From Bacteroidia bacterium (GTDB lineage: Bacteria > Bacteroidota > Ignavibacteria > UBA10030): a stretch of DNA of 64,000 nt. The notes under the pieces were generated by a model. That model saw only the letters and a program-made list of their open reading frames with translations, made no database searches and was not told where the DNA came from. Shown piece after piece: positions 36,667-53,240 of this stretch (position 1 is its first letter; the number at the start of each line of letters is the position of its first letter). The DNA lies in NCBI GenBank assembly GCA_022180565.1, contig BQML01000006.1, positions 2,504-66,503 of the forward strand. Direction: 5' to 3'. The position numbers were made by a program, and so were the translations under genes.

Positions 36667-38247
36667 TTAGGAATATTGTACACGAACGCCGCAGGACTTT
36701 CGAACAGAAAACGATGCATCAACGTACCTGCTCGTCTCAACCCTGGAGTTCGTGAACGTGATCTTCCGGCCATTCACCTGCACCGATGTTGCTTTCGAAG
36801 CCTGGGGCAGAAGGAGATGCAGGTGGATCGTTCCCTGACCTGAAATCTCGAGATCAAACGTTCGCTGACCGGGCCGATGCTCGTAGGTGTACCCGACCGA
36901 CGCCCCCGATGGCCCGTAGGCACAGGAAACCCGGGCTTCATTCCGGCCTGCCGCGATCCAGCGAGGGGAAAGACGCACGCGGCGGTACAGAATATCAAGA
37001 TCCACAACACCGGCCAGGCCCTCGATCAATGCGTAGAGCATGGCCGACGACCCCCATCCATCCGTCGGCGACGCATCCGGACTTGTGCTTGTTTCCCTGC
37101 TGGCCGGCTTGCCGTTGGGAAAATACCAGAGGTAGGTCTCATTGTTCCTCGTGAGCTCCTCGTATTTCAACAGCTGTTGCACGCCGTACTCCTCGAACCC
37201 ATGCTCCAGAGCAGCGAGGGCCAGCTCGCCGCCGACCAAAGGCATGATTCCTCCGTTGCAATACGCGCCCCCGATGATTTTGTCGTCACCGTAGATCCCG
37301 TCCGGAAACGGCGGATCGATGCTGAACCATTCTGCGAACGCCTTCGTCGTCTCTCCGCGCCGCCGGTATTCCCGGATGATCGCGGATGCAATCTCATGCG
37401 TGGCCATTCCGCGATTGATATCCATGGGGTTGCTCAGGCTCAACTGTTCGCTCTCGTCCACACCCTCGATCTTCACCGGTACTAAATGAACGTGATGCGT
37501 GTAGAACCGTCCGTTGAAACAGAGCTTGTTGGCGCGTTTCCGAAAGGATTCTGCGAAAGTACGCCAGTGGCGCGCACGGGATCGGTTGCCGAGATGATCC
37601 TGCATCTTGCTCAGGAGCATGAATGCCTCGTAGTATCCCGAGTTATCCCCGTGCATGATGCCCCAGAACGTCTTGTCGCTGACCTGAAAATTCAGCCACG
37701 GATGACGCCTCGCCGTATAGTCAAAATCCCATGTGTCGATCGTGTAGGCCCTCTTCACCAGTTTCGTTCTCTTGTCCCACCGCCATTCGTCGGTGAGGAT
37801 GTATTCCAAGGCTTTTTCCATGTGAGGAATCAGCCCTTTCATCCACCGGTCATCGCCGGTCGCCTGCCACGCAAGGTGAACTCCCTTGATAAAACGGTAT
37901 TCGACATCTGCTTCGACGGGGACGCGAACGTATTTGGCCCAGTTCTCCTTCTCGCACGGAACTTTTTCCGGAGTCATCGTGAAATAGTCGAAAATCCATC
38001 CGCGCGCAGTCTGAGTCTCTGCAAAATGATCGATTGCGCTCTTCAGGTCGGTCTCCCAGTATTTCGCCCCTCGCATCATGTCGCTGTGATCGCGGATCCA
38101 GATGCTCGGGGCGTCGGGGGTTCGGTACGCACGGATGCGCGTCCCCAGCATGTTATATTCCGTAACGTCGTTTTGCAGAAATCCCCTGATCCTCGGCACG
38201 AGGGCATCGATCCTGCTGTCCCCAGAGAGAATAGTGGTATCACTCAT
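36667..38247 (-). CDS. Cytoplasmic six-hairpin glycosidase-like protein (GH78-like)
   Basis: IWIRD, EADVE, WQATGD..W and DTWD motifs; C-terminal beta-sandwich. Start moved to 38247. Confidence 0.62.
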   Translation of the reverse strand: MSDTTILSGDSRIDALVPRIRGFLQNDVTEYNMLGTRIRAYRTPDAPSIWIRDHSDMMRGAKYWETDLKSAIDHFAETQTARGWIFDYFTMTPEKVPCEKENWAKYVRVPVEADVEYRFIKGVHLAWQATGDDRWMKGLIPHMEKALEYILTDEWRWDKRTKLVKRAYTIDTWDFDYTARRHPWLNFQVSDKTFWGIMHGDNSGYYEAFMLLSKMQDHLGNRSRARHWRTFAESFRKRANKLCFNGRFYTHHVHLVPVKIEGVDESEQLSLSNPMDINRGMATHEIASAIIREYRRRGETTKAFAEWFSIDPPFPDGIYGDDKIIGGAYCNGGIMPLVGGELALAALEHGFEEYGVQQLLKYEELTRNNETYLWYFPNGKPASRETSTSPDASPTDGWGSSAMLYALIEGLAGVVDLDILYRRVRLSPRWIAAGRNEARVSCAYGPSGASVGYTYEHRPGQRTFDLEISGQGTIHLHLLLPQASKATSVQVNGRKITFTNSRVETSRYVDASFSVRKSCGVRVQYS

Positions 38248-38275
38248 AGACGGTATGTTGATGGTTAAAGTATCT

Positions 38276-39010
38276 TCAGATCGCCGGAACGATCTCCTGT
38301 ACATCTGCCCTGAGCACCCAGGTACCCTCCGCCACGAAATGTGTGGCAAAAGCCCTTCGTACTCTGTTGGGCGAACGGTTTCCGTAGGATCCGTGGATTG
38401 TATGGCTGGAAAAAAACACTCCCGCCCCCTGCGGCACCTCCAGATTCCGAATCGTGCTCCGATCCAGACCATCAATCTCAAAGGAATAGAACTTCTGTTT
38501 CCACTCCTTCCCATTCCGATCCCTCATCAGGTGTTCGGATTCCCAAACCTGATGATCCTGTGAGTTTGTGGCCTTATGGGTTGACAAGAGCCCCTTTTTG
38601 TGACTTCCCGGAACGACGCACAGACCGCCGTTTTCGCCGTCGGTGTCGCTCATCGCCACCCAGCAGGCCATCAGGGTGTCGGGATCATTGGGCAGGTAGT
38701 GACTATCCTGATGGAGGGCTGTTCCCTTCCCAGGCTCCGCCGGCTTCTTTTCCAGGTACATCGTTTGGACAATCATCGGTTTCTTTCCCGCCAAAATCTG
38801 CCGCACGACGCTTACAATATTCGGATGTTTTGCCACAGCCGCCCAATGCGCATCCCTCTTGTGATTATCCAGATGGTTCCTCCACTCCGGATCCTGTGAA
38901 GCCTCGTACTGCACGAATTCATCGGCTTCCTTGTGTGTCAGCAAACCGGGTACGACGACAAAGCCGTGTTCCCGATAGTGATTCAATTGTTCTGTCGTGA
39001 GAGTAATCAT
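38276..39010 (-). CDS. PhyH-family Fe(II)/2-oxoglutarate dioxygenase
   Basis: LHQD, W.A..D...ENG.L.VVPGSH and HGS..N.S...RR motifs. GAAGGAGG RBS before ATG 39010. Confidence 0.9.
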   Translation of the reverse strand: MITLTTEQLNHYREHGFVVVPGLLTHKEADEFVQYEASQDPEWRNHLDNHKRDAHWAAVAKHPNIVSVVRQILAGKKPMIVQTMYLEKKPAEPGKGTALHQDSHYLPNDPDTLMACWVAMSDTDGENGGLCVVPGSHKKGLLSTHKATNSQDHQVWESEHLMRDRNGKEWKQKFYSFEIDGLDRSTIRNLEVPQGAGVFFSSHTIHGSYGNRSPNRVRRAFATHFVAEGTWVLRADVQEIVPAI

Positions 39011-39099
39011 GGCAAAGCCTCCTTCAGGTACATGCACATTGGATCGTCAATATACACCATATTCTCGTGCCGCGCCTACCGTTCTGGAGGCCCGGTATG

Positions 39100-40980
39100 T
39101 CATGAATGCCCGGATGTCCGTGCCGGCATCCGCCACATGTAATGAGGATCGATGAAGGGCTCGTCGTCCCTGTGCCGCTCCATGAGCGCTATCTTCCTGG
39201 CCAGGAGATCACCGAAATTGGTGCCGTACATGTGCAGGGACTCTCCTGTACGGGCGATCGGAATGAACTCCACTGAACTGGTATTCCACAGATCGAGAAG
39301 GTCCTTGGTATTCGCGAGCTCACGGTCGATCATTTCCCGAACGACTTCCCTGTATTGTTCCTTTTCCCGGAGGGCTTTCGCTTGCCGGTATCCGTGCACA
39401 CCTTCGATCCATGCCGTCACATTTCTCAGCGTCGTGTAAAATGCGTGCGCCGCTCTGATGCGGACTTCAAGGTCCTCGAAGACATTCCCCGCCTCTTTTT
39501 CCACATCCTTCTGAAGGGAATTCAAAATGGACCGCAAGGGCGGAAGAACCTTTGCATCGATGGTTCTCTTTTTCGCGCGGGCTTCCCGGACCGTCAGAAA
39601 ATTCCACATCATATCGTTGTTCAAATCGACGCGTGTGGGATTATTGAATGTGGCGATGAGATAACGCTCATAGTACGCTCGTTCCGCCTCGGGGATTGCG
39701 TCAATATTGGGTACAAAAGGGCGTACCCACAACCGGAACCACGGGAACCCAAATGTGCTGTACGGAATTCCGGGCGGACAGGCTCTGACTGCCTTGTCTG
39801 CAAGTTTCCAGTATCCCACCAGAAGACTTGCCTTGTCCAGACCCGCCCACTGCACCGCGGTGTTCTGGAGAATGTCTTCGAGAGCGACAGCCCCTTGCTG
39901 CTGGATCGCCTTCAACACTTCGGCGTTGATATCGAACGGTGCAATTGTCCGCGGGGTGGTTGCGGTGAGGATCCACCGGTCCCCGCGGCGAAGAACGTCC
40001 ATCAGCCGGTCATACACAAGGGCGGGGAACGGAAGACCCGGAATGTTATTGTCTGCAACATCCACTTTTCGATGATTCCAGGCCCCGACCTTACGAAGCA
40101 TCCGCTCCTCGTCGCGCCAAGCCGGGCCCTCGAAGTACCCGAATGAGCCCGCATCAATCCCTCCGCCCAAGCCGCGCACAATGTACCGACGCTCTTTGTA
40201 AAACGGTCCGAGATCGCAAATGATCCTGAACTCGGGATTGCGCGCCCTACCTTCATCGAAGAGAAGCCGGTAGTACGTCAGCACATTCTCCGCCGCTTTG
40301 AGTTCAATTTCCTCATCGCTCTTCCACTCGCGAATCAGATACGGCCCTCCGTTTCTGCCTGCATAGAGCGATGAGGTGAACTCAAAGCCCGCCCCGCTGT
40401 CGTTCGTCCAGACATGGATGAATCCGATGTCGGGCACTTCGTTCAGAAGATTTCTCATGAGTTCCCGATAGTGCTGCTGAACAACCGGATGAGCCATAGC
40501 TAATGTGTAACGGGGGAGAAAACTCTCGCGCGGATGGTCGACGCGCGCGCCGCGCAGGTACGGATACTTCTGCCAGAACTCCTCGGGCATCGACCGTGGA
40601 GAGTTGATGTGAAGGCCGGGAACAAGCCCAAATCTCCGCGCAAGCTCCGCATTGCGCTTCAGCGTTTCAAGATTCTTCTGCAGGTACTCCTTGGGATAGA
40701 ATCCTTTAATCAACGAGCTGTCGACAAACTGATCAAGGTCGGGACTGTAGTCGTAGAACCAGAAATACACGTCTCCCGGAGGGCCCGATTCATGCGGAAG
40801 GTCCGTTCCGAGTCCGTTGATCGTCACATGGGTGAAGGCTTGTTCCGCAAGCTGCCTCATGTAATCCTCGGCATCGAACTTCCTTGCACGGCGAAGACTC
40901 CCAACCAGATAATCACTCAGGTTCCTCATCCAGAGGAACGGTCGTTCGACCGAGATGCGCCGGGCCGGCTTGCGTCCCAT
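39100..40980 (-). CDS. Hypothetical protein (possible TIM-barrel + helical glycosidase-like)
   Basis: Long ORF, TGATG-coupled to the MetE-like gene. RVDHP and TNDSGAG motifs; no family recognised. Confidence 0.6.
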   Translation of the reverse strand: MGRKPARRISVERPFLWMRNLSDYLVGSLRRARKFDAEDYMRQLAEQAFTHVTINGLGTDLPHESGPPGDVYFWFYDYSPDLDQFVDSSLIKGFYPKEYLQKNLETLKRNAELARRFGLVPGLHINSPRSMPEEFWQKYPYLRGARVDHPRESFLPRYTLAMAHPVVQQHYRELMRNLLNEVPDIGFIHVWTNDSGAGFEFTSSLYAGRNGGPYLIREWKSDEEIELKAAENVLTYYRLLFDEGRARNPEFRIICDLGPFYKERRYIVRGLGGGIDAGSFGYFEGPAWRDEERMLRKVGAWNHRKVDVADNNIPGLPFPALVYDRLMDVLRRGDRWILTATTPRTIAPFDINAEVLKAIQQQGAVALEDILQNTAVQWAGLDKASLLVGYWKLADKAVRACPPGIPYSTFGFPWFRLWVRPFVPNIDAIPEAERAYYERYLIATFNNPTRVDLNNDMMWNFLTVREARAKKRTIDAKVLPPLRSILNSLQKDVEKEAGNVFEDLEVRIRAAHAFYTTLRNVTAWIEGVHGYRQAKALREKEQYREVVREMIDRELANTKDLLDLWNTSSVEFIPIARTGESLHMYGTNFGDLLARKIALMERHRDDEPFIDPHYMWRMPARTSGHS

Positions 40981-42053
40981 CACTCCGCTCCCAGCTCTCG
41001 CCGCACGATGCGCGTCCCCGCAACCATCGCCTTGAGTTTCCCATACGCCCGCGCACGCGGCATGAATTTCATTCCGCAATCGGGTACAATGCACATTCGC
41101 TCGGCCGGGATATATTTCAAAGCCTGACGGATCCTCGCCGCAACGATCTCCGGCGTCTCAACTTCCTTTGATTTCACGTCAATCACCCCCACCCCCACTT
41201 CCTTGTCCGTTTTGTACTGCCGAAAAAGCTCCAATCCGACACCATCCGAGACGGCAAATTCCAAACAGATCTGGTCCGCATTGGCATCCAGAATGGCAGG
41301 AAATAGCTCGGCATACTGACCCTTGAAGAGCTTCTTCAGCTGATAGTTTCCATAGCAGACGTGAAGCCCGATCTTCGCATCGACTCCTGCCACCAGCCTG
41401 TTAAACGATTCCACAAGCCAAGGCATGTCCTGAGGGTATCCCACCCACACAGGTTCGTCAATCTGAATGAAATCGCACCCTGCCGCCACAAGGCCGCGGA
41501 GTTCCTTGTTCAGAATCTCCGCCAGATCGAATACGAGGGCTTTGTCGTCTTTATAATATTCATCCGTGGCCCGTTTTGCCAGCATATGAGGACCGGTGAC
41601 GCAGACTTTCGTCCGCGCTACGGCGTATTCCTTCAGAAAACGAAAATGCACATCCATGTTGAGACTTTCCTTCCACCGCACTTTGTCATAAATCACCGGA
41701 TCGGGCATCTGGATGCTCGGATCGAGATTTCCGATGGGATGCATTTTCGCGTGCTCGAAATCGAACCCATGGATGCGTTTTGAAAAGAAGTACACCATCG
41801 TTTCGCGGCGGATTTCGCCATCCGTGATCACATCGACGCCGGCCATTTCCTGATCCTTGATGACCGACTTTACTGCATTGTCGTGTGCCTCTTCGACTTC
41901 CCCCGCCGTCAATGTCCCGTTCGCCCCCAGGACACGAACTTGGTCGAGCCATTTGGGAAAAGAATAACTGCCGATAACACTGGTGGGGAGCAAAGGAAGA
42001 TCATGACGGTGCAGTTTTGGCGCCAAGAGAGATATACGCTTTTTTGTTGACAT
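40980..42053 (-). CDS. Cobalamin-independent methionine synthase II family protein (catalytic domain only)
   Basis: IGSY, DVITDGE.RR, IQIDEP, LHVCYGN, LE, GVIDV and PDCG (H/C/E/C Zn ligands). 357 aa, no N-terminal folate barrel. Confidence 0.88.
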   Translation of the reverse strand: MSTKKRISLLAPKLHRHDLPLLPTSVIGSYSFPKWLDQVRVLGANGTLTAGEVEEAHDNAVKSVIKDQEMAGVDVITDGEIRRETMVYFFSKRIHGFDFEHAKMHPIGNLDPSIQMPDPVIYDKVRWKESLNMDVHFRFLKEYAVARTKVCVTGPHMLAKRATDEYYKDDKALVFDLAEILNKELRGLVAAGCDFIQIDEPVWVGYPQDMPWLVESFNRLVAGVDAKIGLHVCYGNYQLKKLFKGQYAELFPAILDANADQICLEFAVSDGVGLELFRQYKTDKEVGVGVIDVKSKEVETPEIVAARIRQALKYIPAERMCIVPDCGMKFMPRARAYGKLKAMVAGTRIVRRELGAE

Positions 42054-42213: not shown

Positions 42214-45200
42214 CTAGCGGAAGACCAAAATTCCCATCGACCCCATGTCCCACCAGCTTTGATTGGCCGTATAACCGGCCCAAATGTGGATATTTTTCCG
42301 ATAGGTCGTTCCGTCATTATCGTTGATTGCAACATCGAATCCGATTTTTGAACCGGGACGAATCAAATCGTGCGGAAGATTCTTCAACGGAAATCGGCAG
42401 ATCAGCACGTACCCGGAATCGGTTCTCGTAAAGAACGTCTCTGCGTTCGGTACCAGAAGCGGCTTCGGGATCAGCGGCCCGCCTGCCCCTGCACCCTGCC
42501 AGCGCTCTTTCGGAAACTCCGTTTTTCGAAACTCCGCGAGGGAAAGATGCCTGTACAAACCGGGCGTTGGCGGGTCGCTCCCCTGATCCTCTCCCATCCT
42601 CGTATCCAACACGACTTCCATGCAATCTGTATCCCAGGGATAACTCATCGCAGGAAAATTCCAGTTGGTCACAGTAACCTGGTCCTTCACGTCTGCCCCG
42701 ACGTACAAATATTCCCTGTCGTACATCACATAAACCTGCGCCGACAAATCCAAGGGGCCGCCCCATGGCTGATTGCCCAACAAAAGCTTGTGAACCTGCG
42801 TCGGCAAATCAATGGTCATGGGCACAGAGCAGTTCCATCCCCGCCAAGTCCCGTCAAGAGCGGGTGGCTCGTTGGCCAAATGCGCAATTCCGGCATACAG
42901 GTCCTGCTCAACCACGGTCGAGAATTCGCCGGCAGAAACCGAGATCCTCACCGGATAAAATTGATTCTTTTCCGACCAACCGGACAAACGTACGGGGATC
43001 TCAATCTTCTTCGTTTCGTGGGGACCCAACAAAAGGTCATGCCTCGAGTCGCCTTCGATTGTCCAGGCGCGATGAGCATCAACAGCCAGACGGGCGGAAA
43101 TGGGCTCCGCCGTGTGGTTCGTCGCCTTCAGAACGAATCTCAGCGGACTGCCGTTCGGAACCCTCAATTCGACGGTCAGAGGAGGAGACACAGTGAACCG
43201 GAGTCTTTCAGAGATATTGCCAAATCCAATTTCCGCCTCAGAATTTACCGGCGGAGCGTCGTGAGGAACGGAAACTTCGAGGCTCGCGTTCTTGTGTTCC
43301 CCGGGTGCAAGTGTTATGAGGCCTGAACGCCTTCCGGAAAGCCAGCGATGATCGACAGGAAAGATTGCGGGAGAGATGATCCTTCGCACAGTACCCTTAT
43401 TCAGAGGAAGCAGATTCACGACTCCTCCCCACCATTCCATTTGACTTCTGACACGTTCGTCCCAATCGTCCTGCAAGCGGATGGTGAGGGCTCCCTGAAC
43501 AGTATCCTTTGTCGGGTTCCATAGGCTCACAGGAATCGCGTTCGTTCTTCCCTGAAAGAGATTCTTCCCGGCCGCTGAAAGATCCAGCACGGGCGTTTCC
43601 GTCTGCCGCAGAACGGCATAACCGTTATCAATCTTCACCCGCGAGGCCGTGCCATTCAAGATAACCTCCGTCGCACCCTGCACAAGGATTCTCAAGGAAA
43701 CAAAATCCGCCTCTGTGTTGACGATCAGCCGGCTATCCTCCCAACGGCATTCGACGGAAGGAAGCGTGATATCCGATGCTACAATCGGTATGTTCCCCCG
43801 CCTGATTTCTTTCACATTGAATCCCGCCGCAAGTGCAACGGCTTCGTTCTGCACCCGGAGAATGGAATATCGGGACTCCCGGACGTCCGCGAAGATTCTG
43901 TCCGTTCCCGCACGATGAACGACTTCATAGGTATCCTCCGCCGGTTTGAGGACCGTTTTCACAAAGGGGACATCCGCATAGGCGTGCAACACATGTGCAA
44001 AACGAGTCGTGTCAGCGAACCGCCTGCTGATCAGGATCGCCATGGGTTTCGGCTCACTCACCATTTGTTTGTAGAACCCGCCGATGGTGGGCGCAATGGC
44101 TTGAAAGAGCCGCGTCCCCTCCTCTGGAATCGCATGTACCATGAGACATTCGTTGCGGACTGAAAACACTCCCGACCAGGACCCGTCTGCCTGAGCGGAG
44201 CGGATCTCTCGAAGCTGGTCGTAGCCGGGAATCCCCGGTTCGTGTCCGAACAGATCATGCGGCTCCGCCTTGAGATGCACACCGGAGAGTTCGAGCGATC
44301 CGAAACTCTGCAGAGGCCAATCGATGATCCTCTTGTCTGGACCTTCGATATCCACAAGATCCAGAAAATACTCTCCCACCTGGATCAGTGTGCGGCGAAT
44401 GAGCGAGCCCGGATAAACGCTCGCTGAAGCTCCTGAAGCGATTTGTACGGACGGCAATGCATCGAAGAAGACTCCGTACCCGTTTGTCCAGGTCTGGCTT
44501 GTCTGATCCAGAACCGGAGTCACATGGGCAACGGTCTGACGGTACCAGAGTTGGAGGTTTGGATTGAAGTAGGATTCGTTCAGCGGATCGACGATCCAGT
44601 TTCTCCCCCTGGCATAGTAACCAATCTGAAGTCTGTCGGGATGGCCGTGTTCGCCGCCCATGATGCCGTAATCGAGATACAGCAGGCGTGCGTCACGGCC
44701 CATGCCGTTCCGGAGCGCCGCAAATCCGTTTCCCTTCAGGTTGACACTGTGCTCCGGAATAAACGTGACAGATGAGGGCGGAAGTTCGGGGATCAGGTTG
44801 AAGATGGTTACAGGCGACTGCGCTTCTTCACGCCCGGAGGTTTCACCCACGACCTGCGTGCCGCGGAGAACGTTGGTCTTGTTGAGAAGAGCCAGATACT
44901 TCGGGTCGCGATACTCCGCATACCCCACCTCATAGTACGGGGCATATTCAAGAATATTTCCTCCGCCGCTATCCTTCATTCGCGGAAACTCATAATTCGG
45001 CAGAATGATTTCGAACGGCGCATCGAACATGCTTTTCATCGACCGGCCAGCGACCTGGACGCGGTACAGGTCGATGCCGTTGTGCCGGGCCATTTCGGCC
45101 AAGTGAATCATGCCGCGGAGCGCCACGAAATGGTACCCCGACCACTCGGGCCAGAAGCCGCTCTCGGGAAGCGCCGAGCCCAACTGCCAGAAGAAGCCGT

Positions 45201-45999
45201 ACTTCCCATGGAGAGCAAAATCGATCAGTTCCTGATCGTTATAGAGGAATCCCACCGCGGCCGAGACGTTGTTGTACCATAACTGGCGGTTGGAGGCGGA
45301 CTCCGGAAATTGCTGAGTGATTTTGGCAAGCGGATAGAAGAGCTTTTCCTTTATCTTCTTGCGTTCTGCGGCAGTAAATTTCGCGTACGGAGAGAGAAGA
45401 TCGTATCCGTACGCCATGTCCACGCCCCAGAACGACTCCGAGAGTGTTCCGAAAAAAACATGGGCCGGTCCGAGGATGGTGTTGGAGGTGGGATAGGAAA
45501 GATAGAGATCGGCGAACTTCGTGAGGATCTTCCGTCCGGCCTCGGCATAGGCGTCGTTCTGGTAGATCTGGTAGAGAATGCCCAGCCAGACAAGCCGGGA
45601 GGCAAGTAATCTGTTGTACCAGCCCGCCCAGGCCATGTCGTACTTGCCGCCGGAATATACCTCCGTACTGTCCTTGCGGCACCGGTGGCGGAACGGTTCG
45701 GTTTCGTCGTAGACGAGCTCCACGTCGTGCTTCGGGCAGGTGTACATCTTGTACTCGTACACCTGTTTGATCGGCGAGACGTACACCGGGCGCTTGATGA
45801 ACTCGTCGCAAACCCGCTTGTGCGATTCGATGATGGAGCGATACCAGGGATGATCGCGAACCCATTCGCGGGCTCGCTCGATATCGGACTTATCCGCGAG
45901 GAGCCTGGGGGAGGCAGGCTGCGCCGCCAGGGGGGGTGGGTGGAAAACTCCAAGCGAACAGAGAAGGATTGTACAGCACCCTCGAATGCGAAGCGTCAA
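42214..45999 (-). CDS. Secreted multidomain PL17-like lyase (toroid + Hepar_II_III) with Ig-like and C-terminal CBM9/DOMON-like domains
   Basis: Signal peptide ...PLAA|Q. SN.Q.W, GFW.E.SGYH and HGHPD.L lyase motifs. PALDG...W, YD.EYLY....V.D, D.MEV..D and GFDVAIND.D CBM9-like motifs. Confidence 0.8.
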   Translation of the reverse strand: MTLRIRGCCTILLCSLGVFHPPPLAAQPASPRLLADKSDIERAREWVRDHPWYRSIIESHKRVCDEFIKRPVYVSPIKQVYEYKMYTCPKHDVELVYDETEPFRHRCRKDSTEVYSGGKYDMAWAGWYNRLLASRLVWLGILYQIYQNDAYAEAGRKILTKFADLYLSYPTSNTILGPAHVFFGTLSESFWGVDMAYGYDLLSPYAKFTAAERKKIKEKLFYPLAKITQQFPESASNRQLWYNNVSAAVGFLYNDQELIDFALHGKYGFFWQLGSALPESGFWPEWSGYHFVALRGMIHLAEMARHNGIDLYRVQVAGRSMKSMFDAPFEIILPNYEFPRMKDSGGGNILEYAPYYEVGYAEYRDPKYLALLNKTNVLRGTQVVGETSGREEAQSPVTIFNLIPELPPSSVTFIPEHSVNLKGNGFAALRNGMGRDARLLYLDYGIMGGEHGHPDRLQIGYYARGRNWIVDPLNESYFNPNLQLWYRQTVAHVTPVLDQTSQTWTNGYGVFFDALPSVQIASGASASVYPGSLIRRTLIQVGEYFLDLVDIEGPDKRIIDWPLQSFGSLELSGVHLKAEPHDLFGHEPGIPGYDQLREIRSAQADGSWSGVFSVRNECLMVHAIPEEGTRLFQAIAPTIGGFYKQMVSEPKPMAILISRRFADTTRFAHVLHAYADVPFVKTVLKPAEDTYEVVHRAGTDRIFADVRESRYSILRVQNEAVALAAGFNVKEIRRGNIPIVASDITLPSVECRWEDSRLIVNTEADFVSLRILVQGATEVILNGTASRVKIDNGYAVLRQTETPVLDLSAAGKNLFQGRTNAIPVSLWNPTKDTVQGALTIRLQDDWDERVRSQMEWWGGVVNLLPLNKGTVRRIISPAIFPVDHRWLSGRRSGLITLAPGEHKNASLEVSVPHDAPPVNSEAEIGFGNISERLRFTVSPPLTVELRVPNGSPLRFVLKATNHTAEPISARLAVDAHRAWTIEGDSRHDLLLGPHETKKIEIPVRLSGWSEKNQFYPVRISVSAGEFSTVVEQDLYAGIAHLANEPPALDGTWRGWNCSVPMTIDLPTQVHKLLLGNQPWGGPLDLSAQVYVMYDREYLYVGADVKDQVTVTNWNFPAMSYPWDTDCMEVVLDTRMGEDQGSDPPTPGLYRHLSLAEFRKTEFPKERWQGAGAGGPLIPKPLLVPNAETFFTRTDSGYVLICRFPLKNLPHDLIRPGSKIGFDVAINDNDGTTYRKNIHIWAGYTANQSWWDMGSMGILVFR

Positions 46000-46159: not shown

Positions 46160-46186
46160 GGGCGGTCCTGGTTTCCCGGACCGCCC
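46160..46186 (-). terminator. GC-rich hairpin after porV (terminator or mRNA stabiliser)
   Basis: GGGCGGTCC-9nt-GGACCGCCC, extendable with GATGA/TCATC; U-tract poor. Confidence 0.5.
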
Positions 46187-46252
46187 AGTCATCCATTCGT
46201 CGTCGACGAACCTTGTGCCGTGTTCAGCCGACAACCGGCGAAGGCCGGCGTC

Positions 46253-47269
46253 TTACTTCATCGAGAATGCCAGCGTGACGCGATGGGCCGCGTCCAGAAT
46301 GTCCATCGACGTATAGGAATAGTCGACACGGACGCCGTAGCCGGACACCGTGGTGTTGAAGCCGGCGCCCAGCGAGATTCCCTCGACCGTGGTCTTGATG
46401 GCTTCACGGAAGCTCGTTCCGCCGTCATCCACGCCGGAATAGTTCAGCTTGTAGCCGCCGCGCACCGAGATCATGTTCATGAACGTGAACTCGGCTCCGG
46501 TGAAGAAGTACTGCACCCCGTCCTGCGGTTTCACCGCATCCACCGCCACCGTCAGCATATTGTTTTCGTCCGAGTACGGCGAGATCGAGGTGCCGATGCT
46601 GAATGTTAACGGAATGGGAGCGCCGTAGTCGTAGAACTTGAGGTCGCCACCCAGGTTGTTGATGCGTGCACCGACCTTCCAGTTCATCACCCCGATCGAA
46701 TAGACAGATCCGAAGTCGAAAGCGATCGCTGTCGCCGTCTGATCGTCAATTTTCTCGCTGATGAACTTGAACGTTACACCAAGGGAAAGCTGTTCCGTCA
46801 CGTAGCGAGAAAACGACGCCTGAAACAGCAGGTCCATATAGTCGTACGACGATGACGTCTGCTGATCGATCTGCAGGGCCTGCAAGGCCGGGTTGCCCGG
46901 ATACACATCCCGATCCGCCGGTATGCCCGACAGGCCGAACGTCATGACACCAAGGCCTACCGTACCGATGTCACCGAGATTGTACGTCACTGCCGCCGCA
47001 TTCTGCGTGATATCCGCAATCCAGCTGTTGTAGGTGAAGGAAACCTGCAGTTGCTCGTCTGTCAGCCCGATTCCCGCGGGATTCCAGAAGATATTGGCAG
47101 CGTCTCCGATGGTAGCGGTCGTTGCCGACCCAAATCCCACCTGACGTGCGCCGACGCCGACCTTGAGAAAGGCCGCGCCGTTGAGTCCGGCCTTCCGCGT
47201 TTGCGCCCACGATTCCCCCGCGGCGAAAACGATCAGAAGAAGGACAATGGAAAGGCTGATTCGTTTCAT
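46253..47269 (-). CDS. PorV/PorQ family outer-membrane beta-barrel (T9SS shuttle-like)
   Basis: GAAFLKVGVGAR, FWNPAG, GARINNLG, VRGGY, VDYSY and HRVTLAF motifs. Signal peptide from ATG 47269. Confidence 0.88.
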   Translation of the reverse strand: MKRISLSIVLLLIVFAAGESWAQTRKAGLNGAAFLKVGVGARQVGFGSATTATIGDAANIFWNPAGIGLTDEQLQVSFTYNSWIADITQNAAAVTYNLGDIGTVGLGVMTFGLSGIPADRDVYPGNPALQALQIDQQTSSSYDYMDLLFQASFSRYVTEQLSLGVTFKFISEKIDDQTATAIAFDFGSVYSIGVMNWKVGARINNLGGDLKFYDYGAPIPLTFSIGTSISPYSDENNMLTVAVDAVKPQDGVQYFFTGAEFTFMNMISVRGGYKLNYSGVDDGGTSFREAIKTTVEGISLGAGFNTTVSGYGVRVDYSYTSMDILDAAHRVTLAFSMK

Positions 47270-47295
47270 GGGTTCTGTCCTTAAAGAATTGGTTG

Positions 47296-49854
47296 TCATC
47301 TTAGGATCGCGAAATGGCCGACCTTCATACCGCCGGAGGGCGATTCAACGGTGTAGATGTACACACCGCTTGCCACTTCCATGCCGTCTTTCGAGAACAT
47401 ATCCCAGAAGACACTGCCGTTGTTCGGATCCGAAGATGAGAACTTGATCTGATCGATAATCTGCCCGGACACGTCGAGAATCGTGATCGTGGCTTCGGGC
47501 GGAAGGTTATAGAACAGAAGTTTGTGATCGAACACGTTCGAGAAATTGTCGTGCAGAGCCGCTCGCTTGTACGGATTGGGCCGCACGCCGACATTTGCGA
47601 CATCACCGGCCGCAGCGAGAGCAGAGGAGACAATGTGAACGCCTCCAATCGCCTGCTTTCCTGCCGCCGTCGTCGGATAGTTGGCGTTGTTCGTCGCGAA
47701 CGGATAGGTCTTCTGCCACAAACCGTTTGCTCCGTTGCGGTTCGTGTAGTGGGTTTCGATCCTTGTCGTTGTTTCTCCATCCGGCCCCTCATAGGGTGTG
47801 GCCGTGTTTTCATAGTACGCTGACACATAATACCAGTACGAGAACCCAAGGACCACATCCGCATCCGTGTACTTGTATGTATAGGGAGTTGTACCACCGG
47901 TGTAATTCCCGACCTGTGCGGCCGGAATCACTTGAACGAGTTCCCAGGTACCCCAAGTGTCGGGCTGATACTCGCCCTTCTGGGCCGCCGCCGCCACAGC
48001 GGAGAACGCGTCGAACTTCGGGTTGACGGGCTTCTTCAATGAGTCTTTTGAAGCGCCGACAACCATTTGCTCTTGATAGCGGTCCGCAAGCCTGTGACCT
48101 TCCTCCAGCCATTTCTTTTTCAGGAAGTTGGAGGATTTCCAGATCTTGTAGCCGGCGAAACCGGGGCGACTCTCGGCTCCATTATCCCATTCGATTTCGA
48201 CCGTCTTCGTTAACGTGTTGCTGACCTTCATGAGGGGCCGATAGGGCGGAATCGGAGACGTTCTGCCGTTGGTGGGACTCTGCATCCAGTTTGTCTGGTA
48301 GGCCCATCGTGCCGCGCGAACGGCTTTCTGGATTCCCTCGAGCCTGTATCCGCCGACGAGACCCAGCACAACGACCATCGATTCGCCGTCGTTCAACTGA
48401 AACGGTCCGATGCCGCTGTACATGTCGCCGTTAAAGTCGTGACCGAAGTTATAACCCTTGCCGTTCGTCTTCGACCATGTACCCCAGCCGGTCGGATACG
48501 GTGTTCCCGTTGTCGCAGTTCCGTCTTCGAAAGGACCTTGTTCAAACGTCTGACCCTTCTGGTCACCGTCAGGTGCGCTTCCGCCCACAGAGTCCCGAAC
48601 AAACGTGGTGGGATCGCCTTGTGTTCCCGACAAGAAAAATGCGTCGTTTGGGCTCCGATCGAGATCGGCAATGCTTCGGGAACTTCCGCCATTCTGATAG
48701 AAGGCTCCTATGGCCACCGTATGCATGCGCCTCGGATCACCGCCTGTTGCGGCCAGACCTCCGCCCGAGCCGGTGGACACATAATCGCCGCGCTGGGCGC
48801 CGGTGCCGATCGGATGAACGCCGAAAATGTTGTTCTTGGTGGGGAGAGAGGCGCTGGAGTTGTTCGGATCTGCAGGGAGGGTACCCGATTTTGCATCGAT
48901 CCACACCCAACCGTTCCAGGTATCGGTGTAACTCTTGATCGTCGGAGCATTAAAACCGAGATCGTTCTGCCCCGCCCCCGGTGTCTGTAAACTGGATCCG
49001 GCATAATAAGCATTGAACGCCCATGGGAAGCCGTCCGGCGCCGGGTTGTGAATCCATCCGCCCATGCGCGTGAACCTGTTTGAAATCGAGTTCACGTTTC
49101 GTCCGCCGCCCGGCTGGCTGGAAATCGACTGGAAGATCTCGCCGGACATTGTGAGCGCCAGAGCGCGAATCACATGGTTCGTCGCCTCGGTCATCCCGTT
49201 CATATCGATGTCGATCTCGCCCGTGTTCGTGAATTCGATTTCCACGATGACGAAATCATTGAGATTGTTCCAGTTGGGGCCGGAGAACCCGTGCGCACGG
49301 ATCTTCACATCAACGCCGAGATTCGTAGGAAAGCCGGCTTCGTAGACGACATGGTTCTTGGCGGCATCCACAAAGTACGGTTCGACGCTGTAGAGGCGGG
49401 CGGGATTATTCGCGCCTGCCACTGTGGATTTGAAGGCCAGATACGCATAATTCCCCGCACCTCCGCTCTCCCACCGGCTCGGGTTTCCGTAAGGATTCCA
49501 GAGCGTATCGGGGTTATATTCCGTGACGTACATGTAATGCGACCAGTACATGGTCCAGGGAAATGCTCCGGGCCAGTGACTGTTCGGCGTCGTCCATGCG
49601 CGATCGAAATTGCCGAAGCGGATGAACTGTCGATTCCCTCGCGTGGGGGCGTCGCCGGCCTCGCCGTAGAACGGACCGAATCCTGCGGGCAACAAGGACT
49701 CCCAGAGATCGCCCGCCTGAATCACGCCGGCGCCGGGAAAGCCGATAACACTGTTCGCCGGCGTCCCGGGTTGCGCGTACGACTGGGACCAGACCATCGC
49801 TGTCAAGAACAGGATGGCGGCCGCAACAGTCGCCTTGTGAAGGATAGGTTTCAT
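47296..49854 (-). CDS. T9SS type A CTD-containing secreted protein of unknown function
   Basis: Signal peptide; C-terminal V.PNPY...LFYNLP..ATITI.D.SG...WD......VASGVYIY...GHFAILR. AAGGAG RBS before ATG 49854. Confidence 0.85.
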   Translation of the reverse strand: MKPILHKATVAAAILFLTAMVWSQSYAQPGTPANSVIGFPGAGVIQAGDLWESLLPAGFGPFYGEAGDAPTRGNRQFIRFGNFDRAWTTPNSHWPGAFPWTMYWSHYMYVTEYNPDTLWNPYGNPSRWESGGAGNYAYLAFKSTVAGANNPARLYSVEPYFVDAAKNHVVYEAGFPTNLGVDVKIRAHGFSGPNWNNLNDFVIVEIEFTNTGEIDIDMNGMTEATNHVIRALALTMSGEIFQSISSQPGGGRNVNSISNRFTRMGGWIHNPAPDGFPWAFNAYYAGSSLQTPGAGQNDLGFNAPTIKSYTDTWNGWVWIDAKSGTLPADPNNSSASLPTKNNIFGVHPIGTGAQRGDYVSTGSGGGLAATGGDPRRMHTVAIGAFYQNGGSSRSIADLDRSPNDAFFLSGTQGDPTTFVRDSVGGSAPDGDQKGQTFEQGPFEDGTATTGTPYPTGWGTWSKTNGKGYNFGHDFNGDMYSGIGPFQLNDGESMVVVLGLVGGYRLEGIQKAVRAARWAYQTNWMQSPTNGRTSPIPPYRPLMKVSNTLTKTVEIEWDNGAESRPGFAGYKIWKSSNFLKKKWLEEGHRLADRYQEQMVVGASKDSLKKPVNPKFDAFSAVAAAAQKGEYQPDTWGTWELVQVIPAAQVGNYTGGTTPYTYKYTDADVVLGFSYWYYVSAYYENTATPYEGPDGETTTRIETHYTNRNGANGLWQKTYPFATNNANYPTTAAGKQAIGGVHIVSSALAAAGDVANVGVRPNPYKRAALHDNFSNVFDHKLLFYNLPPEATITILDVSGQIIDQIKFSSSDPNNGSVFWDMFSKDGMEVASGVYIYTVESPSGGMKVGHFAILR

Positions 49855-49887
49855 GCCTGTACTCCTTATTGACAAGTGATAGTCGGG

Positions 49888-52800
49888 TTAAAATTCAACA
49901 CGAGCGCCGAAATAGAACTCCCGCGGGATATCATAGAACAACGTTCCGTCCGGACCCACGGGCCGTTTCCGGTCGCCGGTGGGGTCGGGTGAACCGGCCG
50001 CAAGAGAGGTCTCCCACAGCGAGGTCCCGGTCGTCGTTCTGTCGTATCCCAGAATGTTCTCCCAATCAAAGATGTTCTTGATGTCCACAAACACCGCGGC
50101 ACGCACGCCTGCAAACGTGAAGCCCTTTTCGAGGCGGACATTGACCATCTTGTTCCACGGACCTTCACCCAATTCCCGGCTGGAGACACGCGGATCCACC
50201 AGTGTCAGCGGGTAGAAGAATCCGCTCTGGAAGGTACCGATTGACGTCAACCGGATGTCTTCAGGGAAGGTCAGCAGGAGCGTATAGGTGATCCGGTGGG
50301 TTCTGTCATAACCGCCGGTCAGCGTGCTATTGGTCCCCTGGACGTTCACGAGAACCTTGTTGTAAAAATTGATATCCCCGAACGGCAGGTCGCCGCCGTA
50401 CGTGGCGCTGTCACCTGCAGCCGTCGAGAACGAGGTCTTCATCTTGGTATCGAGACCCGCAAACTGAGAGGCCTTGATGTAGGTGTAGGCATAGTTCAGG
50501 CGGCCGGTGAGGGTCATGAAGTCGAAGAACCTCTGCGGGAGGGCCTGAACGCTGATTTCCACGCCGCGCGCGTCTGCCAGGCCGGCAGTGAACCCGATGT
50601 TGTAGTTCGTTCCTGTGGGTCCGGACCGCGGGACCACGTTGAACGAGTAGTATCCGTAGTTCTCGATGTCGCGCAGGTATGCCGTCAGGTTCATCCCAAA
50701 TCGCTGGGGCATGAACTCCCACTGCACGCCAAGCTCGTAGTTCGATGAACGGTAGGGCTGTTGTCGAACGGTGGACACGTTGGGCAGGGAGATGTTTCCA
50801 AAGTTGTTGTAGAACGCATACAGCTGGGAGTAGGGCGGCGGTGTCGTGTTGCGGGAGAACGAAAAGTACATCGCCGCTTCGTCGGAAATCGGGTGCGACA
50901 CGCCGAACCGCGGGGAGAACGCCACGATCGGATCCACTTCCCGTGTTCTCACCGTCACGCGATCCAGAACGTCGTTCAGACCGCCGAAGCTCGTCGTCGT
51001 GGTCTGGTACGGAGCAAAGTAGGTGCCGAAATCCTGTGCGGCGGGATCCCAGTAATCGAGACGACCGCCGAGGTTGATGATCAGGCCGGCATATTCCATA
51101 CGATCCGCTGCGTACAGACTGAACTCCGAGGGCTTGATGTTCCATTCTTCATTGTAGAACTGCTTCCGTGCATCAATGGCGCCGAGATATGAGGAGCGGC
51201 GCACCATGTCCAGATTGTGCATTCTCACCTGGAAGCCGCCCTTGAGCTGGTGGTTACGGGTCACCTGGCTCGTGATGTCGCCCTTCAGCGCAATGACCTG
51301 GTTGAGGAAATTCTCGTAGTAGAAGCCCGGACGCGCAAGCCTGACGGTGGTATTACCGGCATTGAATTGGAAGTTCGTAGAACTCGCCGGTTCGTCCTGA
51401 TTGCGGAAGAACTTCGACAGGTCTGTGTTGGAAATGTACTTATCAGCCTCGGCCAGCGTGGACAGCGTAATGAACGTGCCGTCATCTTCATCAAGCGCGC
51501 AAAAACCGTCGCCGTTGCTGTCGATATAGCCCATGCGGTTGATGCTTGAATTGATGCTGGCTTGGATCTCATAGAAAGTCGACGGAGATAAAACGTGCGT
51601 CAGTTTCGCACTGGCGATCACATCGCCGCCGTCGTTTTTCGGCACGCCTTCGAGGAAGAACCGGGCGGATTCTTGATAGGATCGGTTTTTCCATTTCAGG
51701 AAGTATCCGCGGTCGGTAATGATGCTGAACGCGGAAAGCCGCATGTCATCGGACAGTTGATAATTCGTCTTGCCCGTGATGTTGAGTTCACGGTTCTTCT
51801 CGTTAGGCAGGCGACCGTTTGAATCCATGTACCGGCCGCTCAGGAAGAAGTTCCACCCTTCCATGATATCGCCGCCGAGAGAGGCCTCGACCTCGATTTG
51901 CGGCTTATCCTGATTGTTGTACTTGCCGGGATAGTAGCTGTACCGGGTGAGCCGTGCACTATCGGCAGGAAGCGTCGAGTATTGCGACGGAGGAGCGCCG
52001 CTGGTCCGGAGGTTTCGCAACGAATCCACCCGATTGCTCAGGGCGGTTTTCTCGGCGAAGTAGATTGATTCGTTCCAGTACACGTTGGGTCCGTTGTACT
52101 TCAGTCCGTCGAGTTGACTGATGCGGGTGAAGAAGCTTCCGCTCAGCGGTCCGCGGCCTTCACGGAGCGTGTAGTTGATGACCCCGGCTGTTGCCGTGGA
52201 ATACTCCGCACCGACCGCTCCGGTATTGACGTTCATCTGTTCGATCGCACTGAAGTTCAGGCCTCCCGTCGTGTTCAGCTCGCTTCCCCGGTAACGCGGG
52301 GTGCTCGTGTACACGAGGAAGACGGTACTCACCGTCTGATCACCGGCCGCGGCGAAGTACGAATCCGTAACATCGACACCTTCGATGATCGTCTTGCTCT
52401 CTTGAATCCGGCCGCCGCGGATGAAGCCTTTGTATGCCCCGGGTGTGGTGTTCAGAATTTCCACCGCCGAAGTAACCGGAAGGGTATTCGATACTTCATC
52501 TCTTCCCAGCACAGTCTTGGTGGCCGTGAGAGACTTGTCAACCACACGCGGTCTCGCCTCAACCACGATTTCTTCCAGTCCGATCGCCTCGGACCTCAGG
52601 TTGAAATCCCGAGTGATGGTCTGGTCGGCCGACACGACAACGTTGATGACCGTCTCCTTGGCGTAACCGACCGCCGATGCTACGAGTCTGTATGTTCCCG
52701 GAGGAACGTTGAGAATAAAATAGACGCCGTTTCCGTCGGCCGCGGCTCCGAGGGTCGTTCCCTCAATGACAACGTTTGCGCCGACGATGGGATCTCCACT

Positions 52801-52911
52801 CGATGCGTCTTTCACTACTCCTGTAATCTTGCCGCTCTGAGCAAACAGGCCCGCGGACAGCGCGAGACTGAAGAGCGCAACCAGGAGCGTTCGGCACCTG
52901 ACTGGATTCAT
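49888..52911 (-). CDS. TonB-dependent receptor with N-terminal carboxypeptidase-regulatory-like domain
   Basis: GKITGVVKD...GANV, IRGGR, AEY....GVIN, SPRFGVSHPI and YELG motifs; C-terminal PREFYFGARVEF. AAGGAG RBS before ATG 52911. Confidence 0.92.
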   Translation of the reverse strand: MNPVRCRTLLVALFSLALSAGLFAQSGKITGVVKDASSGDPIVGANVVIEGTTLGAAADGNGVYFILNVPPGTYRLVASAVGYAKETVINVVVSADQTITRDFNLRSEAIGLEEIVVEARPRVVDKSLTATKTVLGRDEVSNTLPVTSAVEILNTTPGAYKGFIRGGRIQESKTIIEGVDVTDSYFAAAGDQTVSTVFLVYTSTPRYRGSELNTTGGLNFSAIEQMNVNTGAVGAEYSTATAGVINYTLREGRGPLSGSFFTRISQLDGLKYNGPNVYWNESIYFAEKTALSNRVDSLRNLRTSGAPPSQYSTLPADSARLTRYSYYPGKYNNQDKPQIEVEASLGGDIMEGWNFFLSGRYMDSNGRLPNEKNRELNITGKTNYQLSDDMRLSAFSIITDRGYFLKWKNRSYQESARFFLEGVPKNDGGDVIASAKLTHVLSPSTFYEIQASINSSINRMGYIDSNGDGFCALDEDDGTFITLSTLAEADKYISNTDLSKFFRNQDEPASSTNFQFNAGNTTVRLARPGFYYENFLNQVIALKGDITSQVTRNHQLKGGFQVRMHNLDMVRRSSYLGAIDARKQFYNEEWNIKPSEFSLYAADRMEYAGLIINLGGRLDYWDPAAQDFGTYFAPYQTTTTSFGGLNDVLDRVTVRTREVDPIVAFSPRFGVSHPISDEAAMYFSFSRNTTPPPYSQLYAFYNNFGNISLPNVSTVRQQPYRSSNYELGVQWEFMPQRFGMNLTAYLRDIENYGYYSFNVVPRSGPTGTNYNIGFTAGLADARGVEISVQALPQRFFDFMTLTGRLNYAYTYIKASQFAGLDTKMKTSFSTAAGDSATYGGDLPFGDINFYNKVLVNVQGTNSTLTGGYDRTHRITYTLLLTFPEDIRLTSIGTFQSGFFYPLTLVDPRVSSRELGEGPWNKMVNVRLEKGFTFAGVRAAVFVDIKNIFDWENILGYDRTTTGTSLWETSLAAGSPDPTGDRKRPVGPDGTLFYDIPREFYFGARVEF

Positions 52912-53211: not shown

Positions 53212-53240
53212 AGTATAGAATTTTTTGGAAGTAATGTCAA
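53212..53240 (-). promoter_or_regulatory. sigma70-type promoter TTGACA-17-TATACT upstream of the TBDR operon
   Basis: Minus strand reads TTGACA ttacttccaaaaaattc TATACT in an AT-rich patch. Confidence 0.87.

Follow-up and report, generated by a model that had tools for sequence, protein, structure and literature searches.

A TonB-dependent receptor, a secreted protein with a T9SS-type tail and a private PorV/PorQ-family barrel as a candidate modular uptake unit of Ignavibacteria

Three tightly linked, co-oriented ORFs on the minus strand (46253..52911) encode, in this order, a TonB-dependent receptor (TBDR), a secreted protein of about 850 amino acid residues, here named MID, and an outer-membrane barrel of the PorV/PorQ family. 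Positions refer to the window, i.e. the whole stretch of 64,000 nucleotides analysed, and the ORF positions bear out the original prediction of three consecutive genes on the same strand. We consider it fairly probable that the triad is a modular outer-membrane uptake unit of the Ignavibacteria and related classes of the Bacteroidota, in which a surface-tethered MID would feed the TBDR. The features of the locus are listed in Table 1.

Table 1 Positions of the triad, its parts and its neighbours within the window.
Feature	Position	Strand	Description
Promoter TTGACA-17-TATACT	53212..53240	-	sigma-70-like, 11/12 matches; about 300 nt upstream of the TBDR start
TBDR	49888..52911	-	signal peptide, CarboxypepD_reg-like N-terminal domain, divergent plug, 22-strand-type barrel
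MID	47296..49854	-	852-aa form; unannotated Ignavibacteria family; signal peptide, no lipobox Cys
MID head	48280..49749	-	residues ~36-525 of the 852-aa form; beta-supersandwich
MID FN3-like stalk	47695..48237	-	residues ~540-720
MID specialised CTD	47299..47619	-	residues ~746-852; T9SS CTD fold, below generic type A models
Private PorV/PorQ-family outer-membrane barrel	46253..47299	-	likely start 47269 (MKRISL...); predicted docking site of the MID tail
Two GC-rich hairpins	46160..46248	-	directly after the barrel stop codon; no clear T run; read from sequence
Polysaccharide-lyase-like protein with CBM9	42214..45999	-	1261 aa; between the triad and the conserved partners
Conserved downstream partner genes of the triad subfamily	35389..42053	-	five genes, listed below
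MetE-like	40980-42053	-	conserved downstream partner
unk664	39100-41094	-	conserved downstream partner; TIM barrel and helical bundle, GH-like fold
PhyH dioxygenase	38276-39037	-	conserved downstream partner
unk615	36667-38514	-	conserved downstream partner, 615 aa
Class V aminotransferase	35389-36654	-	conserved downstream partner

The TBDR ORF extends from 49888 to 53007; its signal peptide starts at the ATG at 52911, and an in-frame upstream ATG with an AGGAGG site is present at 53007. The MID ORF (47296-49875) has a likely ATG start at 49854 and an alternative TTG start at 49875. The TBDR-MID spacing is 12-33 nt, and the stop codon of MID overlaps the first ATG of the barrel gene as ATGA. 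A strong promoter had been predicted ahead of the triad, and the near-consensus site found there is the sole one with more than 9/12 matches within 41900-54700; the total count of promoter-like sites is at chance level (5 compared with 5.4 in shuffles). A search of Rfam with 45900-53400, including the leader of about 300 nt, revealed no RNA family at E values up to 1. The hairpins that follow the barrel gene may be a partial terminator or may serve to stabilise the RNA.

The TBDR has Pfam matches to CarboxypepD_reg (71 bits) and to the TonB barrel PF00593 (71 bits, cut-off 27), and its plug scores below the cut-off of PF07715 (16.6 compared with 23.9 bits) over positions 4-106 of the 107 in the profile. 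The match to the SusC/RagA model TIGR04056 (62.8 bits, cut-off 368.25) is limited to the N-terminal domain (residues 60-186); as judged from its sequence, the TBDR is outside the SusC/RagA family. As originally predicted, the window contains no SusD-like lipoprotein, none of its 43 ORFs of at least 200 residues having a match to the SusD families, and the only SusD_RagB and SusD-like_3 matches of the genome are on another contig (C3). MID itself is no SusD lid, with neither a SusD family match nor a Cys in its signal peptide.

The SusC/SusD (RagA/RagB) system is the textbook route of polymer uptake in the Bacteroidota. Like in that system, a TBDR of the CarboxypepD_reg type is followed by the gene for a surface partner at the head of catabolic genes, and the partner differs between loci while the chassis is conserved. 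The triad is distinct in that MID is neither a SusD nor a lipoprotein and lacks a TPR fold; any anchoring would be by means of a T9SS-type tail and a third gene, the role of MID as a lid is only putative, and the TBDR falls below the SusC/RagA cut-off. Non-SusD partner families beside non-SusC TBDRs have been proposed as lids in Bacteroides (Price et al., bioRxiv 10.1101/2023.03.17.533168); in the portion of that preprint available to us these are lipoproteins, none of which has a T9SS tail or a private barrel. The accessible portion of the Melioribacter genome paper reports only one SusCDE operon (PMC3534657).

No domain was found by Pfam in residues 1-750 of MID, and a phmmer search of the genome's own ORFs with MID returned only itself. 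In a Foldseek search of the PDB with the whole MID model the only matches were to FN3 and to the PorZ tail, with nothing for the head. Structure alignment (VIA-align) relates the head to the N-terminal domains of GH15, GH65, GH94 and GH116 enzymes and to galactose mutarotase (9ju0: Z 16.4, 254 residues, rmsd 3.4; 7fe3: Z 16.0). The supersandwich fold by itself establishes no function, and no catalytic domain and no catalytic or binding site was recognised in MID by Pfam, Foldseek or structure alignment. The stalk is shared with a common partner family of about 1050-1250 residues (hhalign probability 99.8%, E 3.8e-29, columns 480-860), and the heads of the two families have no detectable kinship (probability 1.5%, E 0.033). 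The copy at this locus is a member of a distinct, short triad subfamily. Unnamed clusters of hypothetical proteins from Fidelibacterota, Zixibacteria, Gemmatimonadota and Calditrichota were the sole leads from the protein atlas (0.93-0.94).

Within MID, conservation is highest in the tail (identity 0.59 compared with 0.44). By sequence it is under the cut-off for a T9SS type A sorting domain (TIGR04183/PF18962), with 20.8 bits for TIGR04183 (cut-off 23), 19.5 bits for FlgD_ig and no PF18962 match reported at E values up to 5; no triad tail is among the 35 PF18962 matches of the genome. The tail superposes on the solved T9SS CTD of PorZ (5m11_A; Z 10.8, rmsd 2.7, 90 residues, 30% identity), Foldseek matches it to the PorZ-type CTD with an E value of 8.1e-5, and its closest NCBIfam and structural matches are PorZ and PorU. 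With an HMM built from triad tails, exactly four proteins of the own genome reach at least 81 bits, and PorU is next with 34 bits. The tails of PorZ and PorU are retained on PorQ and PorV, respectively (PMC10202324), and by analogy the MID tail may be kept uncleaved on the cell surface.

The barrel matches the NCBIfam model of the PorV/PorQ family, NF033709, with 190.2 bits (cut-off 90) over profile positions 3-326 of 326. It is neither PorV proper (NF033710, 75.5 compared with 250 bits; Pfam PF19572, 26.6 compared with 27 bits) nor PorQ (NF033711, 85.4 compared with 220 bits). The true PorV of the genome (C12:14963-16093; 257.3 bits, cut-off 250) adjoins PorU, and PorQ (227.2 bits, cut-off 220) is encoded on contig C2; the triad barrel was therefore rejected as a housekeeping PorV and is, as had been predicted, a locus-specific paralogue and no single housekeeping copy. 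PorU (934 bits) and SprA (199 bits) are present elsewhere in the genome. The GldM models (PF12081, TIGR03517) gave no match and the GldL model TIGR03513 scored below the cut-off (19.7 bits), the control also matching nowhere with these models. In the whole genome the best score with the PorP/SprF carrier model PF11751 was 16.2 bits (on C4), below the cut-off.

A complex model of the barrel (residues 33-348) with the tail (residues 735-852) gave an ipSAE of 0.93 in three runs, compared with 0.01 for the best of three controls, a score that may reflect likeness to solved complexes rather than binding here, since structures of PorV with CTDs have been solved (PMC10994853). At least 94% of the contacts agree between runs and the partner pLDDT is at least 81; in the calibration, the mark was reached by 58 of 80 solved complexes and by 2 of 110 mismatched pairs. 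An interface of the barrel with the CTD is predicted with confidence, and the MID tail would accordingly dock on its private barrel. PorV-family barrels have the FadL-like architecture in common, and the barrel could be a channel of the FadL type through which a hydrophobic compound diffuses, unrelated to the MID tail. We find this scarcely credible given the assignment to the PorV/PorQ family, the confident tail-barrel interface predicted against null controls and a distribution of the barrel that tracks the tail class exactly.

We propose that the specialised CTD of MID would bypass the general PorV-PorU route and dock on the adjacent private barrel, as PorZ does on PorQ, and that MID, so docked, would stay on the cell surface, tethered next to the TBDR of the same locus. 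The beta-supersandwich head would bind, or possibly trim, a glycan and pass the fragments to the TBDR for import, after which the products of the downstream genes (MetE-like, GH-like TIM barrel, PhyH dioxygenase, unk615, class V aminotransferase and SSF symporters) would process them. MID might contact the TBDR and serve as a lid or binder. The arrangement resembles the PorZ-PorQ and PorU-PorV pairs of the Porphyromonas gingivalis T9SS attachment complex, where the CTD of a T9SS-exported protein sits on a PorV/PorQ-family barrel; here the docking is predicted. It differs from these pairs in that the triad barrel is not the equivalog of PorQ or of PorV, MID is no component of the secretion system and has a head specific to a nutrient locus, and the MID-barrel pair, which is multi-copy, always follows a TBDR gene.

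The three genes occur in the same order in all comparison sets. A tblastn search of the class with the barrel (P0001) found a PorV-like gene in 30/30 loci, and a TBDR is also present at the 15 MID ortholog loci (L002-L016). Among 40 modules of the class that were found by the tail only and taken unselected from the top of the list downwards, 38 have the full triad and one (L055) has MID alone. In named MAG loci of the MID family, the barrel is present in all 28 with enough downstream flank and the TBDR in all 26 with upstream flank. The genome itself encodes three triads and, on C23, one TBDR-MID pair whose tail is of the triad type and beside which no barrel is encoded; elsewhere there are up to 13 triad-tail matches per genome. 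The barrel had been called dedicated to its locus, which agrees with its constant presence in the MID family but does not extend to the barrel-less pair on C23.

Homologues of the head also occur with a generic PF18962 tail (L093, L103 and L111), and these have neither a barrel nor a TBDR where flank exists. The tail class is exclusively linked to the barrel and the TBDR, and these natural tail swaps add support to the pairing of barrel and tail. Since the head is ordinary T9SS cargo in those loci, it need not act as a lid. Synteny and co-evolution of the triad members, put forward in the original prediction as a check, are both found (r 0.81-0.97): in 55 triads the Mantel r is 0.92-0.97, a value reached by 0/999 permutations, and inside each subfamily it is 0.81-0.95, such co-divergence of linked genes showing inheritance as a unit and not contact.

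The same data bear on a carrier-only explanation, in which the barrel would take MID out of the SprA translocon and MID would either be released or be attached to lipopolysaccharide by the sortase, acting as an enzyme or adhesin that is free or cell-bound, with the TBDR merely co-regulated and importing the products while forming no physical complex. Special tails with alternative carrier barrels have been described: cargo with a type B CTD, e.g. SprB-SprF of Flavobacterium johnsoniae, has a cognate PorP/SprF-like carrier barrel (PMC10202324, PMC10994853). Like in the triad, the gene for that barrel comes directly after the cargo gene and provides a private carrier or anchor; the triad differs in having a PorV/PorQ-family barrel and a tail with a variant type A fold, and in being linked to a TBDR and not to gliding. 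The genome's PorU and the generic-tailed heads that travel as ordinary cargo without a TBDR are compatible with a mere carrier. A carrier would leave unexplained why the tail class is as strictly tied to the TBDR (26/26) as to the barrel, and the co-divergence of the TBDR with the MID body (Mantel r 0.97), the nearness of the tail to the retained tails of PorZ and PorU and the lack of a recognised catalytic domain in MID also argue against it, which makes this explanation rather unlikely.

The triad is followed by about 50 kb of catabolic genes, nearly all in the same orientation, among them DUF2961, lyase-like and GH38 genes on the same strand. The original prediction that the triad heads a giant catabolic locus holds to this extent; an IclR regulator and hairpins interrupt the array, and a single operon is therefore not established. 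We rejected the whole array as a unit conserved with the triad, the lyase-like gene being an insertion present only here and in the closest relative (L071) and the comparable flank reaching only about 6 kb downstream. The most conserved neighbour of the triad is unk664, whose fold is similar to that of enzymes from GH138, GH20C and GH67 (Foldseek E 8e-10, probability 1.00, TM about 0.45); PDB sequence searches with unk664 and unk615 gave no match below an E value of 0.2.

These fold-level hints, the supersandwich head and the GH-like unk664, are the reason for suggesting that the substrate is probably a sugar polymer, captured without a SusD lid. The same machine could instead import a nutrient other than a glycan (peptide, cofactor or small organic compound), with the sugar genes adjoining it by accident. 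The other two triads of the genome adjoin peptidase-like and amino-acid genes (assigned by reading) and not sugar genes, and the conserved MetE-like, PhyH dioxygenase and aminotransferase partners are no classic glycan enzymes. Set against this are the glycoside-hydrolase-type fold of the most conserved partner, the likeness of the head to supersandwich domains of carbohydrate enzymes and the DUF2961, lyase-like and GH38 genes of the locus, and we judge a non-glycan cargo distinctly improbable.

A full-text search of the literature revealed no account of a TBDR combined with a CTD protein and a PorV-like barrel. More tentatively, and with a probability that we put just short of even, the tail and private barrel of the uptake unit proposed here may form a plug-and-socket docking system, in which a generic tail leads to release and a triad tail to permanent parking by a given TBDR. 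The triads would then be 'T9SS-tethered utilisomes' of three co-evolving parts with exchangeable heads, replacing the lipoprotein-based SusC/SusD system in the Ignavibacteria and allied classes, and the copy described here would represent a new, short subfamily that supplies a pathway not yet described (MetE-like, GH-like TIM barrel, PhyH dioxygenase, unk615 and aminotransferase).

To our knowledge, SusD genes are few or absent in the Ignavibacteria and several sister classes, although these bacteria live on polymers in sludge, sediments and soils. If the proposal is true, they would have a second and mechanistically different solution to uptake, with a T9SS-tethered partner in place of a lipoprotein lid, and a role would be found for many unnamed PorV/PorQ paralogues and for a very large family of 'hypothetical' surface proteins. 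The triad would also be a marker for nutrient loci in uncultured genomes, and the tail-socket pair could be used for surface display. The natural tail swaps offer a direct way to test the idea.

The three consecutive, co-oriented genes and the strong promoter claimed in the original prediction were both recovered, as was the lack of SusD. On the minus strand, the gene for a TonB-dependent receptor (TBDR) is followed by those for an unannotated secreted protein of ~850 residues, here called MID, and a PorV/PorQ-family barrel (P0001), the genes being spaced by 12-33 nt or overlapping (ATGA). The promoter is the sole strong match within 12.8 kb, where the overall count of promoter-like sites is the same as in shuffled sequences. 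The TBDR plug match is full-length yet weak (16.6 bits) and residues 1-750 of MID match no Pfam domain. None of the 43 large ORFs in the window matches the SusD family, and the single SusD of the genome lies on another contig. Downstream of the triad are ~50 kb of catabolic genes, nearly all co-oriented.

The leader of ~300 nt between the promoter and the signal-peptide start of the TBDR matches no Rfam family. Within it, initiation at an in-frame ATG (53007), preceded by a strong AGGAGG site, would put 32 extra residues ahead of the signal peptide. A DUF2961 gene lies directly upstream of the triad, as it does in three relatives (L075, L104 and L105), and its weak terminator-like hairpin precedes the triad promoter. 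The predicted cleavage sites of the three triad proteins (LFA/QSG, SYA/QPG and SWA/QTR) all leave Gln as the first mature residue, which fits the Bacteroidetes 'Q-rule' as given in the available part of PMC5837995.

Features of the triad, its surroundings and related loci (window positions unless a contig (C) of the same genome or a locus (L) of another genome is named).
Feature	Position	Strand	Remarks
TBDR	ORF 49888-53007; signal-peptide ATG at 52911	minus	CarboxypepD_reg-like N-terminal domain 71 bits; TonB barrel 71 bits
MID	47296-49854 (alternative TTG at 49875)	minus	signal peptide, without lipobox cysteine
Barrel	46253-47299	minus	NCBIfam PorV/PorQ family, 190.2 bits (cut-off 90)
Promoter	53240-53212	minus	TTGACA-17-TATACT; 11/12 consensus matches
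Leader	52911-53240		
Signal-peptide regions	TBDR 52830-52911; MID 49770-49854; barrel 47200-47269	minus	predicted cleavage sites
DUF2961 gene	53332-54477		
Alginate-lyase/heparinase-like protein with CBM9	42214-45999		1261 aa; between triad and conserved partners
Conserved partner set of the triad subfamily	35389-42053	minus	recurs in relatives
TBDR and partner	C23:7558-14489		
Tandem PorV/PorQ-family barrels	C35:38183-41822		
PorV2-like barrel	C7:34974-39560		
Tail-swap genes	L093:1653-4208; L103:5986-10108; L111:5881-9996		generic PF18962 tail

The triad barrel is a paralogue and not the housekeeping PorV. It scores below the PorV (75.5 vs 250 bits) and PorQ (85.4 vs 220 bits) equivalog cut-offs, and is not the genome's single copy, since a true PorV (257.3 bits), adjoining PorU (934 bits), and a PorQ (227.2 bits) are encoded elsewhere, together with a PorV2-like protein and SprA. 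[quoted passage not shown] GldM gave no match and GldL only 19.7 bits, with models that gave no match in control genomes either; these models may miss the T9SS motor of this lineage owing to its divergence. PorV/PorQ-family barrels also occur outside triads: a tandem pair on contig C35, preceded by the gene for a 595-aa protein that bears a generic tail, and a PorV2-like one on C7, both close to sigma-54-type regulator genes.

Two further triads of identical gene order are present on contigs C19 and C29. On C23, a fourth TBDR is paired with a 1167-aa partner bearing a triad-type tail (81 bits), without an adjacent PorV-like barrel; a 679-aa membrane-anchored protein is encoded after the partner gene. 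The dedicated barrel of the original prediction has a candidate in each of the three triads of this genome and no adjacent one in the C23 pair.

The C-terminal tail of the triad proteins represents a class of its own. That of MID is below the TIGR04183 cut-off (20.8 vs 23 bits) and is unreported by PF18962, whose 35 matches in the genome include no triad tail. From the genome, a profile HMM of 55 triad tails retrieved exactly four proteins at or above 81 bits, with PorU next at 34 bits and generic tails ranking below it. Among NCBIfam models the MID tail is closest to PorZ and PorU, and its modelled structure can be overlaid on the C-terminal domain of PorZ (Z 10.8, rmsd 2.7, 90 aa, 30% identity). 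According to the available part of PMC10202324, the PorZ and PorU tails are retained, seated on PorQ and PorV, and cognate PorV-like barrels are suggested to shield tails from cleavage.

The MID family comprises 164 detected proteins, all annotated as 'hypothetical' and named from Ignavibacteria-like or Bacteroidota MAGs, except for one labelled 'Acidobacteriota'; the 45 loci of a named-genome scan are all from MAGs of the first two kinds. The AlphaFold2 model of MID, made from 33 sequences (pLDDT 80.2, pTM 0.82), has three parts: a head (residues ~36-525), an FN3-like stalk and the tail (~746-852). The modelled head is a large beta-supersandwich for which Foldseek returned no match; in VIA-align it resembles the N-terminal domains of GH15, GH65, GH94 and GH116 enzymes (9ju0, Z 16.4, 254 aa, rmsd 3.4; 7fe3, Z 16.0) and galactose-mutarotase-like proteins (Z about 11). 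Profile comparisons reveal homology of the MID stalk and tail to the corresponding parts of the common 1050-1250-aa triad partners (probability 99.8%, E 3.8e-29) and no detectable relation between the heads (probability 1.5%); the MID of this window therefore represents a short subfamily in which a shared chassis bears another head.

The tail class is exclusively linked to the barrel and the TBDR, and the synteny expected across genomes was found. Searches using tblastn with P0001 revealed a PorV-like gene in 30/30 class-sample loci, and each of the 15 loci of MID orthologs in other genomes (L002-L016) has the TBDR; a contig end truncates the L012 barrel, and L017 is cut inside MID. Among 40 further class-sample modules, taken unselected from the top of a list of tail-only matches, 38 have TBDR, MID and barrel in order on one strand; the exceptions are L039, cut by the contig end, and L055, where MID is alone amid glycoside-hydrolase-like genes. 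In the named MAG loci of the MID family, the barrel is present in 28/28 that have a triad-type tail and a downstream flank of 1100 nt or more, and the TBDR in 26/26 that have 1000 nt or more upstream. Three homologues of the MID head end in a generic PF18962 tail in place of the triad type: L093 and L103 are without barrel and TBDR, while L111 is without a TBDR across 5.9 kb upstream and is cut on its downstream side. L107 is also without an upstream TBDR, its sequence being cut ahead of the tail, and L112-L114 are frameshifted assemblies with an unscorable tail and both neighbours present. Some of the three tail-swap homologues have ASH and SBBP repeats (~1370 aa), and their neighbours include BNR/Sortilin-type proteins with cohesin and dockerin domains. 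In the phylum sample, 146/301 genomes had a match to the tail alone (E up to 1e-8), as many as 13 in a single genome, and two large families had none (0/63 and 0/22). Tandem triads in L081 and L100 (TBDR-MID-barrel-TBDR-MID...) show duplication of the whole unit.

The members of the triad also co-diverge. In 55 complete triads (four of 59 modules were omitted as incomplete), distance matrices for the barrel, the tail, the body of MID and the C-terminus of the TBDR correlate with r of 0.92-0.97, reached by 0/999 permutations, and within groups with r of 0.81-0.91 (MID subfamily, 15 triads) and 0.88-0.95 (common type, 40 triads). The three genes are therefore inherited and diverge as one unit, as anticipated, and contact is not implied by co-divergence alone. 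Within MID, conservation is highest in the tail (identity 0.59 vs 0.44 within the subfamily and 0.34 vs 0.19 between subfamilies).

An interface between triad members was predicted with confidence for barrel and tail. Complexes of barrel residues 33-348 (27-row alignment) and tail residues 735-852 (32 rows) gave an ipSAE of 0.93 in three runs (best of three controls, 0.01), with contact agreement of at least 94% and partner pLDDT of at least 81. The calibration mark was reached by 58/80 solved complexes and 2/110 mismatched pairs, which is a rough guide only with custom alignments. The predicted interface involves a conserved N-terminal segment (34-47) and loops of the barrel, and tail residues 756-765, 793-802 and 821-852. 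Solved structures of PorV-CTD complexes exist (PMC10994853, available part), so the high score may mirror likeness to these. Beside this predicted docking of a tail, a role of the barrel as a FadL-like channel is very improbable.

From these computational results we infer that MID is probably exported by the T9SS and kept by its private barrel beside the TBDR, where it would capture glycan for import. The barrel would capture and retain the special tail, as PorQ does that of PorZ; this would park the head next to the TBDR, putatively in contact with it, and glycan bound by the head would be imported by the receptor. Alternatively, the barrel may be merely a carrier, with MID acting independently of the TBDR. 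The barrel-less C23 pair, L055 with its solitary MID and the free-standing homologues of the head show that the parts are able to work apart; set beside the exclusive link of the tail class to the TBDR, we regard independent action as rather unlikely.

In relatives, the conserved order is TBDR, MID, barrel, MetE-like, unk664, PhyH, unk615, class V aminotransferase and SSF, where unk664 and unk615 stand for two of the conserved partner proteins. Among 45 loci, many cut short, the MetE-like partner, a single-domain protein, is found in 27, unk664 in 24, unk615 in 14 and PhyH in 12. The lyase-like CBM9 gene is found elsewhere only in the closest relative, L071 (96% identical), and looks like a recent insertion. 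Neither unk664 nor unk615 has a sequence relative in the PDB, and unk615 belongs to no family. The unk664 model (pLDDT 74.9, pTM 0.80) combines a TIM barrel and a helical bundle, similar to GH138, GH20C, GH67, GH115 and GH89 enzymes (Foldseek E 8e-10 to 1e-5, probability 1.00, TM about 0.45). Together with the fold of the MID head, this modelled fold makes a glycan the likeliest substrate; an identical machine serving a nutrient other than a glycan appears improbable.

Full-text literature searches, supplementary files aside, found no description of the triad. The triad falls outside the SusC, SusD, PorV, PorQ, PorP/SprF and generic type A tail models, and belongs with the PorV/PorQ family and, judged by fold, with the T9SS tails. 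With SusC/SusD and, from the available part of Price et al., the non-SusD lipoprotein lids, it has in common a TBDR with a surface partner, putative in the triad; with PorQ-PorZ, and with PorP/SprF and type B tails, a cognate barrel holding a T9SS tail, which in the triad is predicted. The triad is a union of these two known principles. New here are the short MID subfamily with its supersandwich head, the tail-swap cases, the conserved partner genes, including the GH-like TIM barrel, and the barrel-less pair.
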